From Massalongia carnosa (taxonomy: Eukaryota), in contig OZ287083.1 of the NCBI GenBank assembly GCA_965645245.1, forward strand, positions 930,001 through 994,000: 64,000 bases of DNA, given 5' to 3'. Under the pieces are notes generated by a model, which saw only the letters and a list, made by a program, of their open reading frames with translations, searched no databases and was not told the origin of the DNA. This document shows positions 12,863 to 26,907 of this stretch, piece after piece. The first letter of the stretch is position 1. Every line of letters begins with the position of its first letter. A program made the position numbers and the translations under genes.

Positions 12863-14201
12863 CAGTCCCGTGCCAAAAGCCTGCGGCCCAACCCGTGATT
12901 TTCGTGATTTCACGTTTTCAACTCATCAACCCCCTATCTTCCACCTTATCATTTCACCATGCTTCCTGCTTCTTTGACCCCCATAAGTTGTAATCGGCCT
13001 CATAACACTGAATTGACGCCATATTAATGTGGTATGATTGTTGGGGCCCAGGCGTTGGGGCACACACCGACCGAGATTGGGAAGACTATTAATTTCACTA
13101 AATCGACCGCGCAGAGCACCATTCAGAAGCACTCAATTCGCAACGACGGCGTGTCTAAATCACGTTCTGGACGGCCTGAAGTACTGTCAGAACGCGATCG
13201 ACGTTATATCATCAAGTATGCACGAATCAATCCACGAATCACTTATACACAAATCAAACTATAAATGGGGCTCGGCTGCAGTCGTACGACTATTTATCGG
13301 GCACTCAAACTGTATGGTTTAACTAACTGGGTGGCTAAAAAATGACTTTTATTGACGCCTGAGGTGGCCAAGAAATGATTGAATTGGTGCTTGCTGCGGC
13401 GTGAGAAGACTTTTGAGCAGTGGTCAAGAGTTATATAGTCGGATGATTGCTCGGTAGAAAAGGGGTCAGGAAAACAGCGTCAGTGGGTATTCAGATTGCC
13501 GAAAGAAAAAAGGAATAAAAGAGATGATACAACCTGTCCCCAAAGGCGAAGGAGTCAGTGTCATGGTCTGGGCAGCTTTTTAGGGAGATAACAGGTCAGA
13601 TCTTTACAAATTGGCTCGTGATTTTGCTGCGAAGAAGATGGGGTACTCGGCGAACTCATATATGGAATTATTGAACGATAATCTGCTTAGAATTTGGCAA
13701 CCGGGCCTCATTTTCATGCAGGATAACGCACCTATACATAAGGCTAAAAAGGTAATAGAATGGTTCAATAAGAACTGCATAGAGGTCATCGATTGGCCCC
13801 CCTATTCACCTGATTTAAATCCTATCGAGCACGTTTGGTATGTGCTCAAAAAGCTCGTCTGTCAAGTTAACCCGAACATAGATTTGGTGATCGGCAGTGA
13901 TGAAACTGTTCGTGAGGTACTTTGGGAAGCGTTAGAAGAAGCCTGGATGTTGATAGATGTGAAAATGATGAGGAGGTTAATAGAGAGCATGAATAGGAGG
14001 ATAAAAGCGTATATAGCGTCGGAAGGATGGTATACTAAATATTAAAAATCAATTTTTGGGGGAATTCTCGTTTAGCATGTATGAAATCATTATATAAAGT
14101 TTCAAGACATTTCAGCATTCGTGACGTAGTTGATTGTTGATTGAATAGAATGATTGAAATGTTAGTGGGGTGCGGGGCCGCAGACTTTTGGCCTAGTACT
14201 A
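12863..14201 (+). mobile_element. Tc1/mariner (DD34E) transposon, decayed
   Basis: TA TSD at 12861-62 and 14202-03. Imperfect ~27-bp TIRs with core GCCAAAAGYCTGCGGCCC. Transposase motifs SGRP, MQDNAPIH and WPPYSPDLNPIE, with 34 residues between D and E. Stops in the 5' half. Confidence 0.93.
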
Positions 14202-14513: not shown

Positions 14514-14738
14514 AGCATGCTTATTATTGAAGGTATGGATTATATGTGAGCTATCTACTTACGCCGCGCAACGGTTCAGGTTTCTCTACTGGAAACCCAA
14601 CCCGTTTGTGGTGAACCCTATGATTTTTGGTGTCCGGGTTGAGTTTTGAAAGAAAAACCCGGTGGCGAAAAGCAGTTTTGTGGCGAAAACCCAACCCGTT
14701 GCGCGGCGTATATCTACTCATTATATAGCAGTCATATT
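14513..14738 (-). mobile_element. Diverged copia LTR fragment that hosts the MITE
   Basis: With the MITE removed it reads 'tagcatg...attgaaggta...gctat...tatagcagtca', paralleling the copia-3 LTR at about 35232-35295. Confidence 0.55.
14560..14710. mobile_element. 151-bp hAT-type MITE
   Basis: Perfect 15-bp TIR TACGCCGCGCAACGG. 8-bp TSD TATCTACT at 14552-59 and 14711-18. Internal AACCC motifs. Confidence 0.93.
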
Positions 14739-15639
14739 TGTAACAGTTCGACCATGCGTGGTGCGGACGGCAGGACCTACAGCGAACATAGGAGTCCTAG
14801 TTATAGTAGAATAGAGTTTGGTCTGCGGACTAAGTATTGTGTCTTTTGGTAGGGAGGACAGGTGGCGCAATGGTAGAAATCTATTCACTATCTCGCTTCG
14901 TCACAGAATACTTAGTCATCAATCGTTGTACTAGTCGTGAGTTCGATTCCTGACTTGAGTTCCTCGCTTTTTCGCCTCGCTTCGACGGATTGAAGCTAGG
15001 ACGAAACGGGAAAGCGTTGGATAAAAACTCTCCATGTCGGATCGGCGAGGGCCGTACGCTAAAATGAGCCCATTATTCGGGGCTAACTATAACTGGAAGC
15101 GGCTAGGGGCTAGCCGCAGCTAGACGGGCGGTAGTGTAACGGTTCGACTATGTGTGGTGCGGACGGCAGGACCTACAGCGAACATAGCAGGAGTCCCAGT
15201 TATAGTAGAATAGAGCTTGGTCTGCGGACTAAGTATTGTGCCTTTTAGTCGGGAAGGACAGGTGGCGCAATGGTAGAAATCTATTCACTGTCACGATTCT
15301 ACACGGCACGACCTCGGCACTCGGCACCGCCTAGGGCAATCGTAGATGGAACACGCAGGTGCTTTCGATTTCGTTCCCGCGGCTGCTAGAAGGTTCCATG
15401 ACGACTATACCACATGGGTACTAGCGCAGTAGAGGATATATAGGGGCAGGTTCTGGTTGTCGATTGTCTTTTTCCTTCTTCATCTTTATTGTATTCGTTT
15501 CTAGTGTCCCTATGACTTGTCTCTAGGTAGATCATAAAATTACATTAAAGATCGTCTTCATCTATTATCCTACGTGAGGGATGTAAAAGAACTCACCGAA
15601 TCGAGGACTGAAGAAAGAACGACCCTTTCATTAGGCAAG

Positions 15640-16274
15640 TCGTACGAACCAGAGCCAGAACCACCAGAACCAGAAGGCCGCCACCCCTACAGCGTGGCAC
15701 CCAGAACCAGAACCAGAACCAGAACCAGAAGGCCGCCACCCCTACAGCGTGGCACCCAGACCCAGAATCCGAACCCAGAGGAACCATCCTCGGTGGCGGA
15801 TGTAAAAGAAACCCACATCGGAACGACAACAAGCGACCCTTGCACTAGGCCAGTCACCCAGAACCAGAACCAGAAGGCCGCCACCCCTACAGCGTGGCAC
15901 CCAGACCCAGAACCAGAACCAGAAGGCCGCCACCCCTACAGTGTGGCATCCAGATCCAGAACCCGAACCCAGAAGAACCATCCTCGGTGGCGGATGTCAA
16001 AGAAACCCACATCGGAACGACAACGAGCGACCCTTGCACTAGGCCAGTCGTACGAACCAGAACCACCAGAACCTTCAGAACCACCCAGACCCAGAAGAAC
16101 CATCCTCGGTGGCGGATGTGAAAGAAACCCACATCGGAACGACAACGAGCGACCCTTGCACTAGGCCAGTCACCCAGAACCAGAACCAGAAGGCCGCCAC
16201 CCCTACAGCGTGGCACCCAGACCCAGAACTCGAACCCAGAAGAACCATCCTCGGTGGCGGATGTCAAAGAAACC
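15640..16274 (+). repeat. Modular repeat array, continuing at 21478-21780
   Basis: (CCAGAA)n linkers join two recurring modules, each present in five copies. Confidence 0.9.
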
Positions 16275-19200
16275 TATTGTAATTGAAGCTCTGCTGGCAT
16301 AGTAAAAAGCTCACTTTTGAAACGATTGCTCTTTCTATCTACCTATCTAAGGACCGTGTTTATATAGATAGAAAAACATGCCGAAAACCGTTCTCCCTAT
16401 GACTCACCTTCCTGCTTCCTAGAAATCTAAGATTGGTGATTGACTCATATCCAATTTATGACTCGATGGGAATGTTCATTGAAGTTTTGCGGTGCTTCTC
16501 GAGGTCGTTATGTGTTGCCTAATGTTCTTACCAACGCACTAATCCCAATGCGGTACCATGTGACTCTGAGCACTTTACTAGGCATCAGTCGGGTGACTTT
16601 GCACATTACAACACTCCACTGCAAAGTTGCCAGGTGAGTAATAATATCCTAAACGCCGGTTTCCAATCTGATTTTGTGTGGCCTATGTGGTCAATTTAGG
16701 TGGCCTTATAATGAAGCGTCCTCCATCTTCCTATGCCTCTCTTAGGCCTAATTTCTCGCGCAACTTTCGAAAGATAGGTGCCGCCAGTGGTTTAGTGAAG
16801 ATATCTGCCACCATATCGTGAGTAGATACGTGCTGTATAGTGGCATAGTTTTCTTCAACGACCTCCCGAAGATAATGAAGCTGAATATCCATATGTTTGG
16901 ACCGACTATAGTGCTCAGGGTTTTTTATCAAATCGAGCGTACCCTGGTTGTCGCCATTTAGGATAATTGGTAGGTTCATATCTTTGGAGAAGTTCAACTC
17001 TCCGAACCATCTAGTTGCCCACACTATATCTTTTGAAGCCTGGCACATGGAAGAATACTCTGCTTCCATGGTAGATGTGACGACTGACCGTTGCCTCTTA
17101 CTGGCCCATATAACTGCCCCGTTTCCTAGCATCAGAACGTGGCCATATGATGATTTTCTATCATGGTTATCACCATACGCTGCATCAGCATAACTAGTGG
17201 GTCCGGTGTCATTGGGTTCGTAGGTAAGTGCCAAATTCGTGGTCCCATTCAGATATTTTATGAGATGGTCTACCGCGTTTCGGTGCCTAATTGCTGGATC
17301 GTACGTATATTGACTAAGCTTTCCAACTGCTTGGGCAATGTCTGGTCGCGTGTTGATCATCAAAAACATCAAACTCCCTATCCGTTCTTGATATTCTAAT
17401 TGGTTTGTCCTAGGTTCGTTGACGATGGCAGGACTGCATGCATCATAGTTGATCATAGGGGTAAGGACTGAATTTGCTTTATCCATCTTATATTTCTGCA
17501 GGAAGCTGCGAATGTAAGATGATTGGTCAATCATTATTTTGTCTTTCTCGCGACGTATGCGAATCCCTAAGATGAACTTTGCTGGCCCTAAGTCTTTCAT
17601 ATTATATTCCTTTATTAGTAGACTTTTGAGCTCCTTTATGGCTGTCATGCTTTTGGAAAATATCAGAAAATCATCAACATAAAGGCTAATGATAACGTGG
17701 GTAGTATGATTAACGAACACACAATTGTCTCCTGAGAGCGCTTTGAAACCAATAGATGTTAGATAATTGGTTATCTTTTTATTCCATCCTCGGCCAGATT
17801 GTTTGAGACCATAGAGTCCTTTCAGAACGTGCAACACATGGTTCGTCAGACGTGGGGGAAGCACCAAGCCTTGGGGAGGCTCCATATAGATTTCGTCATC
17901 TAGGGAGCTTTGCAAGTATGCGTTTGGTGCGTCCATTTGCTCAATATGGAAGTTATATTTACATGCGAAATATAGGAGCATTCGTAAGGATTCATACCTT
18001 AGGGTGGGTGAAAACGTGTCCCCATAGTCTGTCCCGGGGATTTGTTTGAAGCCCCTTGCTACTAATCGTGCTTTATAGCGGTCAACATGGTTAGTAGGGG
18101 TGTATTTCACTTTGAAGACCCATCTAGCGGTGATGATGTTCTTATCTGCTGGTCTTTCAATATATTTCCATGTATTATTGGCGGCGAGAGCATTTAATTC
18201 GTCTTGAATAGCAATTTTCCATTTGCGATGGTCAGTGCATTGCATGGCCTGATTATATGACTGCGGCTCGTACACTTTAGATGGTTGTTTTGCTATATTT
18301 GCCCGGTCCCGGTCCTTTTTGTTTCCATAAGAGTTATCGAATTCGTATCGGTTATACACATCTTTCCTGCGGTTGGAACGTCTGGTAGGTGATGAAGAAG
18401 GGGTCCTATTTGTCTCCTGAGTTTGGTTGTTTTGGTGCTGGGCACCTGCATCATCTTGGTGCAGATTACCCTGAGCACCTGCATCATTATCCTGATGCTG
18501 AATACCATCGCCCTAGTGCTGATCACCATTAGTAGGAACTCCCACTTGATCAGTAGTAGGGTGGTTGGTTGGTGGTGACGATTCATTGTCATCGGAAGAG
18601 TCATCGTCATTTAGGACGACGGACGGGGATGATAGGCCTTTTGTAAGTAAGGATCCCCCCGGTCTTTTTTCATCAAACTTTATTGAAGTCTGAATTTCCA
18701 CCTTTTTTGTTTCCACATTGTATAACCTATATTGATTGCTTGAATGATACCCGGTGAATATTGCCTGATATGACACATTATCTAGTTTTGAGCGTTTTTC
18801 CTTTGGGACATGCACAAAAGAGACGCATCCGAACGTACGAAAAGTGTTGATGTTAGGTCTTAGCCCGGTCCAAGACTCATTAGGCGACGTGGTGTTGGTG
18901 GCAGGTAAGAAGTTTCTGAGGTGGTTTGCTGCTACTGCTGCTTCCCCCCAGAAAGATTGTGGCAATTTGGCCCATACCAACATAGACCTTACCATTTGAA
19001 CAATGGTTCTATTGAACCTTTCGGCGACACCGTTCTGCTGGGGCGTGTATGCGGTGGTTGGCTCCATACGAATTCCTAATGGCTGAAGTTGCTCTGCGAG
19101 ATATTTATACTCTTTGGCATTATCAGCACGAAAGCGAATGATTTTGAGCCCCTTTTCCAACTCGACCATTGCCTTCCAGTCTTTTATGATGCGGTATATG

Positions 19201-21477
19201 TCTGCCCTACTTTTCATACAGAAGAGCCAAGATTTTCGGGTATAGTCGTCTATCAAAGAAACGAAATAGGTATGCCCACCTAAACTGGCCTTATTATATG
19301 GACCCCAAACGTCAGTATGTATTCTATCGAGTGGTCTATTTGGCTTCGAGAAAGGAATTTTGCTGATTGTACGGGTTATCTTAGTTAAATTGCAAATCTG
19401 GCACGGTAGGTCCAGAATTGCCTTTGAAAATTTCTTCCCTGTTGCTTGTTGAAGTCGTATATCATTGGGGTGCCCCAATCGTGTGTGCCATAACCAATAT
19501 TGGGCCTCATTGGTGGCCTCATTGGTGGTCTCTTTGGGTGCTCCCACTGGATCGCCATTGATACAGTGAGGGGTAATAGGAGGAGGAGTTTTGGGTTGAA
19601 TTTCGCCGGAGGAAAGCGAGGTCAGATTTGTGGTTGATTTAAGGTTTGCCGGTGATTCAAGGCCATCTAAATCATCATTTTCATCATGGGCTTCGAGGGC
19701 CACATGAGATGTGTGGAGGAAGTACGCCCGTCCCCTAAGAATTCCGGTAGCGACCAAAGTACCATCCCTGAAAATCTCGACACCTCTCCGGTTAAGTGAA
19801 ACGTTCAAACCCTTCCGATTAAGGGCTGCAATTGATAGCATGTTGACGTCTAGTTCAGGCACGAATAGAACGTCTGTCATCCGGATATTTTTCCCATCGA
19901 TATTGGTGCAAATCGTACCTACTCCTACGGAGAAGAGTTTTTCGCCGTTTGCAATTCTAATGGTGGTCCGGTATGGCTTGATTTGGGTGAAGATCGATTT
20001 GTTGTATGTCATATGCCTGGAGGCTCCTGAGTCAATTACCCATCCAGGTGAGTGTTGATCATCTTGCGCCATCCACGCACTATCCTCACTATCACTATTC
20101 GATTTATCCTTTGCTGCTCGTGCTGCCCCCCTTCCTCTCGGTTTGTTTTTGGACTGCTTGTTATCACTCTTTGATTTTCGGTTATTTTCTGGTCTAGGTT
20201 TCACCTCATTAGGGTGATCTTTGACCCATTTTTTACCTTCATCTGTGTTGTCCTGCCAGTCCCAGCAATCATTGCTATTATGCCTCTTTGAGCAATGTGA
20301 GCATTTGGGGATTGCCTTACCCTTGTTAATGGCCTTATTGGCCGTCTCGGTCTCTTGCCCATCTTTTAGTCGTTGCTCCACCCGTTTTAGGCTTTCCAGA
20401 GTCTTTTCTAATGTGGGATCACCAAGGTCTTCAAGGATGAACTTCGCGGTGTCATAAGCTGGGTCCTTAATGGCGTTCATGAGGGTCATGGCCACAGACA
20501 GATCTGATGGCTGTTCTGAAGTCTTTATATCTGCGATTTCCATCGCAAGGTTCTGCAATTCATTGGCGACCTCATCGATGGGTTGATCGACTGACATTTC
20601 ATATGTGTAGAATTTTCTGTGAAGCACACATATTCTGCTTTTGGCTTTGACTCCATGGACGGTCCTCAATGCTGCCCAAACATCCTTTGCGGTCTCCTTA
20701 TTCCTAACAGTGACATATTGAGACTTTTCTATATTGCCCCTGATCCAGAGCTGTGCCTGAGTGTCATCAGTAAACCATTCCTCATAGTCTTTTGGATAGG
20801 TGACAGGGTCTGGAGAAGAAATGGCCCCGTTTACTATCCTCCACATCCTTTTAGATTTGAGAAGAAGTTGCATGTCATCGGCCCAGGTCAGATAGTTGTT
20901 GGACCCAAGCTTCGGCTCTACTTTATAGTCTCCTTTTCGAATGGCTTTTGAATATGATCCATCAGGGGTTGTGCCCTCTTTCGCGGGAGCTGCGGAATCG
21001 CTCCCTTTTCCAGACATGGTCCAATAATAGGAAAACTGATGGATGGAACGAAGAGAAGTATGGCTTCGTAACTTTGAAAACAACAGAATAGATAGATTAA
21101 TTTATGCGGAAGAAAAAATTGCTTTCCGGGCTCATAACCTATTGTAATTGAAGCTCTGCTGGCATAGTAAAAAGCTCACTTTTGAAACGATTGATCTTTC
21201 TATCTACCTATCTAAGGACCGTATTTATATAGATAGAAAAACATGCCGAAACCGTTCTCCCTATGACTCACCTTCCTGCTTCCTAGAAATCTAAGATTGG
21301 TGACTGACTCATATCCAATTTATGACTCGATGGGAATGTTCATAGAAGTTTTGCGGTGCTTCTCGAGGTCGTTATGTGTTGCCTAATGTTCTTACCAACG
21401 CACTAATCCCAATGCGGTACCATGTGACTCTGAACACTTTACTAGGCATCAGCCGGGTGACTTTGCACATTGCAACA
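16275..21477 (-). mobile_element. Ty1/copia LTR retrotransposon (copia-1), nearly intact
   Basis: LTRs at 16275-16613 and 21140-21477. TSD AAACC at 16270-74 and 21478-82. PBS GGTTATGAGCCC. Gag-PR-IN-RT-RH domain order. Confidence 0.97.
16731..21083 (-). CDS. Copia-1 gag-pol polyprotein, broken in the IN-RT linker
   Basis: 18513-21083 has CSHC-H-C, WVIDSGAS, LWHTRLGH, DNAKEY and QNGVAER. 16731-18359 has KARLVARGF, LYVDD and ADIFTK. Confidence 0.93.
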
Positions 21478-22236
21478 AAACCCACATCGGAACGACAACG
21501 AGCGACCCTTGCACTAGGCCAGTCGTACGAACCAGAACCACCAGAACCTTCAGAACCACCCAGACCCAGAAGAACCATCCTAGGTGGCGGATGTAAAAGA
21601 ACCCCACATCGGAACGACAACGAGCGACCCTTGCACTAGTTAGGCCAGTCGTACGAACCAGAACCAGAACCAGAACCAGAACCACCAGATACCAGACACC
21701 AGAAACCAGACAGCAGGCACCAGACACCAGAAACCAGACAGCAGGCACCAGACACAAGACACCAGACCCCAGACACCAAAGCACTAACTGGACCGAAATT
21801 ACCGGAAAATCGACGAAAGAGCTTGGAAAGACACGGGAAACCTTGGCAAAGAATCGGAAGCACTTCAGCTAATGAACCAGTTTTACCGCTGACTACTGAC
21901 TGCCTGCACCGCTTGCACCGCCTAGTTCGCGCTCAGGTGATCGCGATTTAAAGCGAAGGGTAGTGTCACGATTCTACACGGCACGACCTCGGCACTCGGC
22001 ACCGCCTAGGGCAATCGTAGATGGAACACGCAGGCGCTTTCGATTTCGTTCCCGCAGCTGCTAGAAGGTTCCATGACGACTATACCACATGGGTACTAGC
22101 GCAGTAGAGGATATATAGGGGCAGGTTCTGGTTGTCGATTGTCTTTTTCCTTCTTCATCTTTATTGTATTCGTTTCTAGTGTCCCTATGACTTGTCTCTA
22201 GGTAGATCATAATATTCACTATCTCGCTTCGTCACA

Positions 22237-26736: not shown

Positions 26737-26907
26737 TGTGACAAAGCGAGATAATGAATAGATTTCTACCATTGCGCCACCTGTCCTTCCCGACTAAAAG
26801 GCACAATACTTAGTCCGTAGACCAAGCTCTATTCTACTATAACTGGGACTCCTGCTATGTTCGCTGTAGGTCCTGCCGTCCGCACCACGCATGGTCGAAC
26901 CGTTACA
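26737..26907 (-). mobile_element. Solo LTR of the TRIM family inserted in chromovirus pol
   Basis: Reverse complement of the 15135 LTR. Flanked by AAATC (one extra A on the right). Splits 'EFNFK/IMYRPG'. Confidence 0.93.

Follow-up and report, generated by a model that had tools for sequence, protein, structure and literature searches.

A probably self-priming TRIM with a putative tRNA-type Pol III promoter split across its LTR/interior junction

A short non-coding retrotransposon in the genome of Massalongia carnosa carries tRNA-like letters on either side of the border between its 5' LTR and its interior, which raises the question of whether these letters form a Pol III promoter and, if so, which RNA it would make. 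An initial annotation of the 64,000-nucleotide stretch of DNA analysed here (the window) had proposed that an A box in the LTR, together with a B box and a run of five T (T5) in the interior, directs a ~115-nt Pol III RNA or recruits TFIIIC, and its author knew of no fungal equivalent. Here we describe the element and its copies throughout the genome, together with a second, unalignable TRIM family that has the same layout, and we propose that the Pol III product may be the genomic RNA of the element itself.

The element, which we call family A, is 570-571 bp long and consists of two LTRs of 167-172 bp, an interior of 228 bp, a primer-binding site (PBS) as well as a polypurine tract (PPT); no stop-to-stop frame of 150 aa was found over it (window 14739-22236, Table 1). 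An exact 5-bp TSD is present at 22 of 32 family A copies, and the LTR ends were defined from these. Several other repeats surround the element. A DDE_3 transposase fragment (window 13584-14045) and a MITE-like small inverted-repeat element (~14560-14712), the latter also found within a solo LTR (L147), lie just upstream. The nested element that splits the 3' LTR comprises ~1.7 kb without pol, with LTRs of ~253 nt, a self-complementary PBS and Pro/Glu-rich repeats, and is itself interrupted by a Copia element (~16271-21477, minus strand). From 22616 to ~28860 there is a Ty3/Gypsy element whose PBS is self-priming and whose frames are broken; a family A solo LTR lies within its pol region. The boxes and the anti-primer hairpin described below are both absent from two other self-priming LTRs of the window.

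Table 1. Features of the family A TRIM (window positions) and of related loci elsewhere in the genome
Feature	Position	Strand	Basis or remark
5' LTR of family A TRIM, TG...CA	14739..14905	+	repeat comparison, TSDs
Weak TATA-like element	14801..14809	+	first TATA base 26 nt before self-primer; function putative
U3 'anti-primer' arm	14817..14823	+	complements first 7 nt of self-primer; outside predicted RNA at 5' LTR
Self-primer, predicted 5' end of genomic RNA and start of R	14828..14838	+	11/11 complement of PBS
T4 of motif CCTTTTGG, common to family B	14844..14847	+	read through at 5' LTR in the model
Degenerate A box (A1)	14847..14857	+	19 nt after primer start; lacks invariant A14; aligns with perfect A box of family B; role putative
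tRNA-like 5' piece	14856..14876	+	tRNA positions 1-7, perfect A box A2 (14863-14873), D-loop letters
TRIM interior including PPT	14906-15134
Primer-binding site, self-complementary type	14907..14917	+	1 nt after LTR end
tRNA variable-loop/T-arm-like piece, B box 14940-14950	14934..14950	+	T stem unpaired; 16-nt identity with tRNA-Met
Interior T5, candidate leaky Pol III terminator	14968..14972	+	5' arm of predicted hairpin with 15007-15016
Polypurine tract	15122..15134	+
3' LTR, first part, interrupted by nested element	15135..15288	+
3' LTR hairpin (15216-15233) over primer copy, 9-nt spacer, T4 (15243-15246)	15216..15246	+	predicted end of genomic RNA; termination presumed from yeast data
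Nested LTR element splitting 3' LTR, foreign to TRIM	15289..22214	+	5-bp TSD 15284-15288 / 22215-22219
Final 17 nt of 3' LTR	22220..22236	+
Family A solo LTR within Ty3/Gypsy pol region	26737..26907	-	A box only
Family B reference copy	L196:1405-1995 (G000:C16 ~595.5-596.1 kb)		also L195, L197-L199; solo LTRs among L200-L224
tRNA gene with D-arm insert, Arg-TCT-like	L143 (G000:C5 ~454.9 kb)	-
tRNA gene with D-arm insert, Trp-CCA-like	L145 (C8 ~422.4 kb)	+
tRNA gene with D-arm insert, Arg-ACG-like	L186 (C1 ~3481.5 kb)	+

The A-box 11-mer at 14863-14873 has identical copies at 15263 and at 26769-26779 (minus strand), while a B-box 11-mer with one mismatch is found at 14940-14950, 35 nt inside the interior. 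Because the B box and T5 are interior, the complete set exists only behind the 5' LTR, and the 3' and solo LTRs carry the A box alone; on all of these points, including the identity of the A box in the three LTR copies of the window, the initial annotation was correct. Taken singly, the B box is near chance in the 64-kb window, with 6 matches against 3.65 expected (12 of 100 shuffles reach 6), and the A box has 3 matches against 1.05 expected, all three being copies of one LTR. The A..B pair at host spacing, by comparison, appeared in 14 of 20,000 dinucleotide shuffles of LTR plus interior and in none of 756 non-TRIM 400-nt tiles of the window, and the pair plus T-run in none of 20,000 shuffles for family A, and likewise none of 20,000 for family B. 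Across the genome, loose A..B patterns are also matched by two repeat families besides the TRIMs, which shows that chance can produce such pairs where repeats abound. The comparison with host tRNAs recommended in the initial annotation was made against 30 host tRNA genes, and the two boxes turned out to be the two longest exact matches of family A: 16 nt of the B-box region with tRNA-Met (L099; 1 of 2,000 shuffles) and 14 nt of the A box and D-loop with two tRNA-Arg genes (L142, L143; 0 of 2,000 shuffles). The distance from A to B box is 77 in family A and 42-126 in host tRNA genes (n=31).

The identity of a tRNA gene was considered for the element and rejected, with ARAGORN and Rfam blank and the stems mostly unpaired. 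ARAGORN predicted no tRNA in the window or at any of 30 family A loci, and Rfam gave no match up to E 10 on 14700-15300, including no 5S similarity. No cloverleaf can be drawn for family A: the D stem lacks a partner, the T stem has one Watson-Crick and two wobble pairs of five, and the acceptor stem has four and one, respectively, of seven. The boxes agree with the consensus in both TRIM families, whose acceptor, D and T stems remain largely without pairs. Members of the tRNA-derived SINEs (SINE2) keep their A and B boxes while the tRNA stems decay, but such an identity is rejected by the LTR-PBS-PPT-LTR anatomy of family A, which, unlike SINE2, has integrase-type 5-bp TSDs and no LINE-like tail. 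There is also no sign of tRNA-gene targeting, with no tRNA gene at or within 1.5 kb of any of the 30 best full-length copies.

An indication of where the replicating RNA begins comes from the PBS, which is complementary at 11 of 11 positions to the LTR segment listed as self-primer in Table 1; the complementarity is perfect in 52 of 60 copies and was reached by 2 of 20,000 shuffles. No exact minus-strand match of at least 9 nt to the 30 host tRNA genes, an incomplete host set, was found. Such a self-complementary PBS, which the initial annotation had overlooked, is the hallmark of Tf1-type self-priming (PMC4600332) and would place the 5' end of the replicating RNA near 14828 and not at 14856. 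The start of the primer is in turn complementary to an arm in U3, over 8 contiguous bp in family A (15 of 20,000 shuffled U3) and over 5+6 bp in family B (14 of 20,000 shuffled U3). In family A each of these pairs is kept in 146-151 of 152 LTR copies, and in both families the core anti-primer stem ends 9 nt before T4. The stability of the free hairpin region is unremarkable in family A (67 of 500 shuffles) and unusual in family B (2 of 500). Predicted folds of a family A RNA starting at the primer give a primer:PBS pairing probability of 0.84-0.85 and a 3' LTR hairpin probability of 0.89, whereas the primer:PBS probability falls to 0.00 for RNAs starting 10-33 nt upstream. In family B the favoured start is at the hairpin loop, and primer:PBS pairing forms with upstream starts as well. 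These folds are consistent with self-priming from an RNA 5' end at the primer. Priming by the 3' end of the RNA was also considered and was dropped, since the hairpin masks that primer copy (probability 0.11 on the PBS).

Family A copies are numerous in the genome searched (52 Mb, 25 contigs), where the A-box 14-mer has 365 exact occurrences, almost all of them within LTRs and two within tRNA genes, and where there are 56 exact LTR-end/PBS junctions. The two LTRs are identical in 9 of 47 two-LTR copies, which indicates that the family moved recently. In a comparison of 61 distinct copies with a mean identity of 95%, chosen by similarity or exact PBS and thus biased, the A box is intact in 47, the B box in 57, T5 in 55 and all three in 38. 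In this biased sample the A box diverges by 3.6% per site and the B box by 1.5%, compared with 3.8% for U3 and 2.6% for the distal interior; CpA/TpG and CpG sites account for much of the difference among copies. In the comparison of boxes with flanks that the initial annotation had proposed, the boxes showed no better conservation than the rest of U5, at low power given copies 95% alike, neutral decay and biased sampling. Variants common to both LTRs of a copy were treated as pre-insertion changes; U3 has 18 of these and R-U5 has 4 (p=0.04 relative to changes in one LTR), with none in the 21-nt tRNA-like piece (p=0.57 against the rest of R-U5, p=0.14 against U3). Public contigs contributed the same family A and its CpA/TpG hot spots only. 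A subfamily with a different primer, hinted at by public contig ends, was discarded when its genomic matches proved to be a MITE in a solo LTR and an unrelated site. An autonomous partner with a family A LTR was likewise discarded, the examined exact junctions all entering the TRIM interior, whole or cut, and a 5.3-kb autonomous candidate (L061) appears to be a TRIM that has received an insertion at its PBS. Among rearranged copies, L038 is a head-to-head inverted family A pair sharing a partial LTR, and L025 is a tandem LTR-interior array.

A second family was discovered by a scan for self-complementary PBSs in flanks, a procedure blind to A and B boxes. Family B is 591 bp long with an LTR of 186 bp and is represented by 5 copies with interior among 49 matches; an exact TSD is present in 3 of 4 tested copies, and one copy has inserted in U3 of a family A copy (L124). 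Alignment of the two families revealed no significant similarity (score 23 against a null of 22.9; 136 of 300 shuffles), and the primer/PBS pair of family B, of up to 19 nt, is entirely different from that of family A. The order of the layout is nonetheless the same in both: anti-primer hairpin, self-primer, T4GG, A box, LTR end, PBS, B box and T-run. Counted from the 11-nt primer, T4GG lies at +17 in family B and at +16 in family A. The perfect A box of family B begins at the last T of T4, +20 to +26 from the primer start, and is present in 16 of 29 LTR copies, although among the 5 full copies the 5' A box is perfect in just 1; the perfect box A2 of family A sits 16-17 nt past the position that aligns with it. 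One G separates the LTR end from the PBS in family B, and in all five interiors the B box stands behind GTCG and is followed by a T-run 26 nt later (27 in family A). From the primer to the 3' LTR T4 there are 426 nt in family B and 420 nt in family A. The longest matches of family B to host tRNAs are again its two boxes, both of 11 nt, a length reached by 48 of 2,000 shuffles, and tRNA stems are absent. Searches for a third TRIM family led back to families A and B, the sole other match being one unrelated single site, and pattern scans of viral and metagenome sequence returned 11 and 27 loci, respectively, with no TRIM among them (phage tRNA-like RNAs, tRNA genes and SINE-like repeats).

Coding elements of the same genome served as controls. 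Among 20 loci around coding Ty3/Gypsy RNase H matches, 16 have an LTR pair, and the 4 without a pair were left out. Thirteen of the 16 have a self-complementary PBS of 7-9 nt, with a TATA at -33 to -54 in 12 of those 13; the remaining 3 have no mapped self-primer, probably because the repeat found is part of the LTR. Since coding Ty3 elements self-prime, helpers of the right priming type exist. No LTR A box was found in the 16 elements, and in none of the 13 with a mapped primer does anti-primer pairing exceed 4 bp. A B box occurs in the leader of 1 of 16, as a perfect T-arm hairpin. This element (L225, G000:C8 ~102-108 kb) is a coding self-priming Ty3 without an A box, in which the T-arm mimic lies 47 nt after the 5' LTR and has a 5-bp stem and a 7-nt loop that reads as a B box. 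Neither TRIM shows similarity to the 20 coding-element loci beyond inserted TRIM copies, and no helper could be assigned. The shuffle statistics, the second family with the same layout and the absence from coding Ty3 LTRs together support, at the level of sequence, a split tRNA-type Pol III promoter across the LTR/interior junction. In this respect the initial annotation stands, its layout being above chance and recurring in family B, whereas the ~115-nt product that it assigned to the promoter has to be revised.

We propose instead that Pol III makes a genomic RNA of ~420 nt, from the self-primer (14828) to the hairpin-assisted T4 of the 3' LTR, and put the probability of this reading at roughly 0.55. 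The element would be a non-autonomous self-priming TRIM whose type-2 Pol III promoter exists only at the 5' LTR, where TFIIIC would bind the interior B box and an LTR A box, leaving 3' and solo LTRs silent. With TFIIIB on the TATA-like element, Pol III would start at the self-primer (~14828) and pass the T4 that follows 16 nt after the start, as no upstream hairpin would have been made yet, and the interior T5 would leak. In the 3' LTR the transcribed U3 arm would fold over the primer copy, hiding it from the PBS, and this hairpin would turn the T4 into a terminator, giving the ~420-nt RNA with an R of ~20 nt. The 5' end of the RNA would then pair with the PBS, and cutting by the RNase H of a Ty3/Gypsy helper would yield the primer, as in Tf1. 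An RNA of ~145 nt ending at the interior T5 would be a likely side product.

Several of these steps can be set against yeast data. According to work on yeast termination, T4 and T5 act weakly as terminators when there is no hairpin 0-7 nt before them, and release at T4 is stimulated by a hairpin 0 or 7 nt upstream but not by one 18 nt upstream, the 9 nt seen here lying outside the set (bioRxiv 2021.08.27.457903). By the same yeast criterion (bioRxiv 2021.08.27.457903) the interior T5, at which the ~115-nt RNA of the initial annotation would end, would be a weak terminator; it is also predicted to form a hairpin arm with 15007-15016, and it is reduced to T4 in 3 of 61 copies, one of which has identical LTRs, the change converting a wobble to a C-G pair in the predicted hairpin. 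In yeast the distance from the start to the A box is given as 12-20 nt, and TBP is allowed a window of 20 bp (bioRxiv 2020.04.17.046805), whereas the perfect A box of family A is 35-36 nt from the primer start, beyond that range, and the degenerate box at +19 lacks A14. The predicted structure upstream of the interior T5/T4 is -7.6 and -10.0 kcal/mol in families A and B, compared with -11.6 and -13.2 at the LTR T4. A conserved interior T-run with structure upstream of it would be awkward for a full-length Pol III RNA, and, the T-run being kept in place with some structure before it in both families, a short RNA is likely. In a tRNA-type SINE from metagenome contigs, probably of fungal origin, internal T5 runs are found in 6 of 7 copies, so that a T5 need not stop a retroposing RNA. 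The predicted R would leave ~9 nt for strand transfer once the primer has been cut. The proposed ~115-nt RNA from 14856 to 14970 would lack primer, PPT and R and would start too far downstream; what survives of that proposal is a short RNA as a probable side product.

The genomic-RNA reading has to be weighed against other uses of the same letters. Pol III might use the perfect A box, starting at ~14845-14856 and stopping at the interior T5, in which case an RNA of 115-145 nt would be the main product, serving as a decoy or, if it started at the primer, as a donor in trans of strong-stop DNA, and Pol II would make the genomic RNA. The perfect A box is canonically spaced for a start near 14845-14851, the position of the interior T-run is constant in both families, and family A has Watson-Crick pairs at four inner positions of the acceptor register; among 31 host tRNA genes, moreover, the first run of at least five T is a T5 in 16, longer in 12 and absent in 3. 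However, a product from 14856 would be without primer, folds of 147-152 nt are not more stable than shuffles (z 0.19, -0.07), the T5-to-T4 changes would improve a hairpin of the genomic RNA, and the family B A box lies at a distance from the primer start that would make a Pol III start fall on the primer. On this evidence a short main product is unlikely.

Nor do we think it probable that the boxes only bind TFIIIC, as a chromatin barrier or anti-silencing anchor, with Pol II transcribing from the TATA-like element. TFIIIC residence is reported to depend mainly on the B box (PMC11724288), and in the 61 copies the B box is better kept than the A box; the TATA of family B, 37 nt before the 11-nt primer, also lies where the Pol II elements have theirs (-33 to -54). 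Family A, however, lacks a TATA spaced as in the coding elements, and TFIIIC binding alone would leave unexplained the T4GG that both families have 9 nt after a hairpin, the A box and the T-run behind the B box. Rather improbable is the view that the tRNA-like pieces are RNA structures or relics, derived from a captured tRNA or SINE piece or from a T-arm mimic in a helper leader, and serve folds for priming or packaging. The tRNA-like 5' piece at 14856..14876, with its A box, does overlap with the 5' arm of a stem in U5, and the full-length fold (z -2.6) pairs the B box to interior sequence downstream; the perfect T-arm hairpin described above occurs in one coding Ty3 family, and the tRNA part of Helenus-1_AmAr, as given in the supplement of its description, starts with the same 8 letters (PMC10886601). 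Against these stand the T stems, unpaired in both TRIMs while the boxes fit the consensus in two families that cannot be aligned, and the lack of any resemblance of either TRIM to the coding-element loci except where a TRIM copy has inserted. That the motifs arose by chance in an ordinary Pol II TRIM is very improbable: single boxes are common and loose pairs recur in other repeats, but the shuffles and tiles yielded no complete arrangement and the tRNA matches extend to 16 and 14 nt.

Other Pol III-type loci came to light in the same genome and in public data. Three host tRNA genes (Table 1) are interrupted, within the D arm or directly behind it, by inserts of ~45-55 nt that start with GTAAG and end with AG, one of the three with a clear CTAAC branch motif; these look like spliceosomal introns, and no report of spliceosomal-type introns within tRNA genes was found in the open literature. 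L187, L188 and L189 (G000:C3:2374683, C5:1349183 and C14:533559), with a similar match at C2:2682553, are related single-copy A/B-box loci with shared flanking motifs, terminal T-runs and no Rfam match, and may possibly represent an unrecognised Pol III RNA family. At L190 (G000:C8:1264774, minus strand) an A/B-box leader is followed by a C/D-box snoRNA-like segment below the Rfam cut-off, a layout that we take to be like that of yeast SNR52. The metagenome SINE (L149, L157-L161, L171), all from one metagenome, is tRNA-headed and ~600 nt long; its tail is a CTAT repeat, and it shows RIP-like changes besides the internal T5 runs. The phage tRNA-like RNAs of viral contigs L131-L141 have acceptor and T arms, but their central insert is long and varied. 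In several of them ~19 letters around the A box agree with those of the family A TRIM, a likeness that is probably convergence on the tRNA consensus.

To our knowledge, Cassandra is the only TRIM for which Pol III use has been demonstrated. Its promoter and that of Ajax, as described, are 5S-derived, of type 1 and placed with the terminator wholly in the LTR (PMC10886601, PMC7215508), whereas family A has no 5S similarity in Rfam. Cassandra RNA is reported to start in the 5' LTR and end in the 3' LTR with an 18-nt duplication, near the ~20-nt R predicted here, and Ajax is tRNA-primed (PMC10886601, PMC7215508), unlike family A with its self-complementary PBS. A closer parallel is Helenus, or TRIMp3, a group of TRIMs of 311-1263 bp with tRNA-type A and B boxes for which Pol III use is inferred (Kojima 2024, PMC10886601). 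The belief that no fungal equivalent had been described was wrong in general, since fungal Helenus families appear in that work, with a different layout (PMC10886601). Helenus resembles family A in its degenerate tRNA fold, its 5-bp TSD in fungi and its solo LTRs, but in the elements described both boxes lie in each LTR (PMC10886601), whereas family A has the A box alone in the LTR and the B box in the interior. The Helenus elements covered there also use cellular tRNA primers and have no complementarity to their own tRNA-like part, in contrast to the self-complementary PBS of Ty3/Tf1 type in family A; and in fungi they ride on Copia and have hosts that, in that account, are all Basidiomycota (PMC10886601), while the TRIM host here looks like a filamentous ascomycete, to judge by 2EXR/DUF7730 domains and by a mitochondrial tRNA order usual in Pezizomycotina. 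Tf1/Tf2, Tj1 and other Ty3/Gypsy elements of the Tf1/sushi group have a PBS complementary to the 5' end of their own RNA, as predicted here, but are described as autonomous and Pol II-transcribed (PMC4600332), whereas family A is non-coding, with tRNA-type boxes and an anti-primer hairpin not seen in the coding elements. Judged from its sequence, the element would work like a TRIMp3 and yet be no member of Helenus, Cassandra or Ajax. A search of the openly accessible literature found no description of the split self-priming layout.

If the model is true, Pol III parts alone would solve the problem of starting in one LTR and stopping in an identical other, and the choice of the Pol III start site would be coupled to tRNA-free priming. 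TRIMp3 would extend to ascomycetes and to helpers of the Ty3/Tf1 type, and it would be understandable how whole-tRNA screens of LTR libraries could miss the class; dozens of mobile TFIIIC sites per genome would also be expected. The two families in one genome lead to predictions of RNA ends at nucleotide level. Tentatively, they may belong to a possibly pan-fungal class of self-priming Ty3/Gypsy parasites transcribed by Pol III, in which a promoter completed at the junction, a start that defines the primer, a hairpin-gated T4 and an interior T-run attenuator yielding a short primer-bearing RNA would act together.
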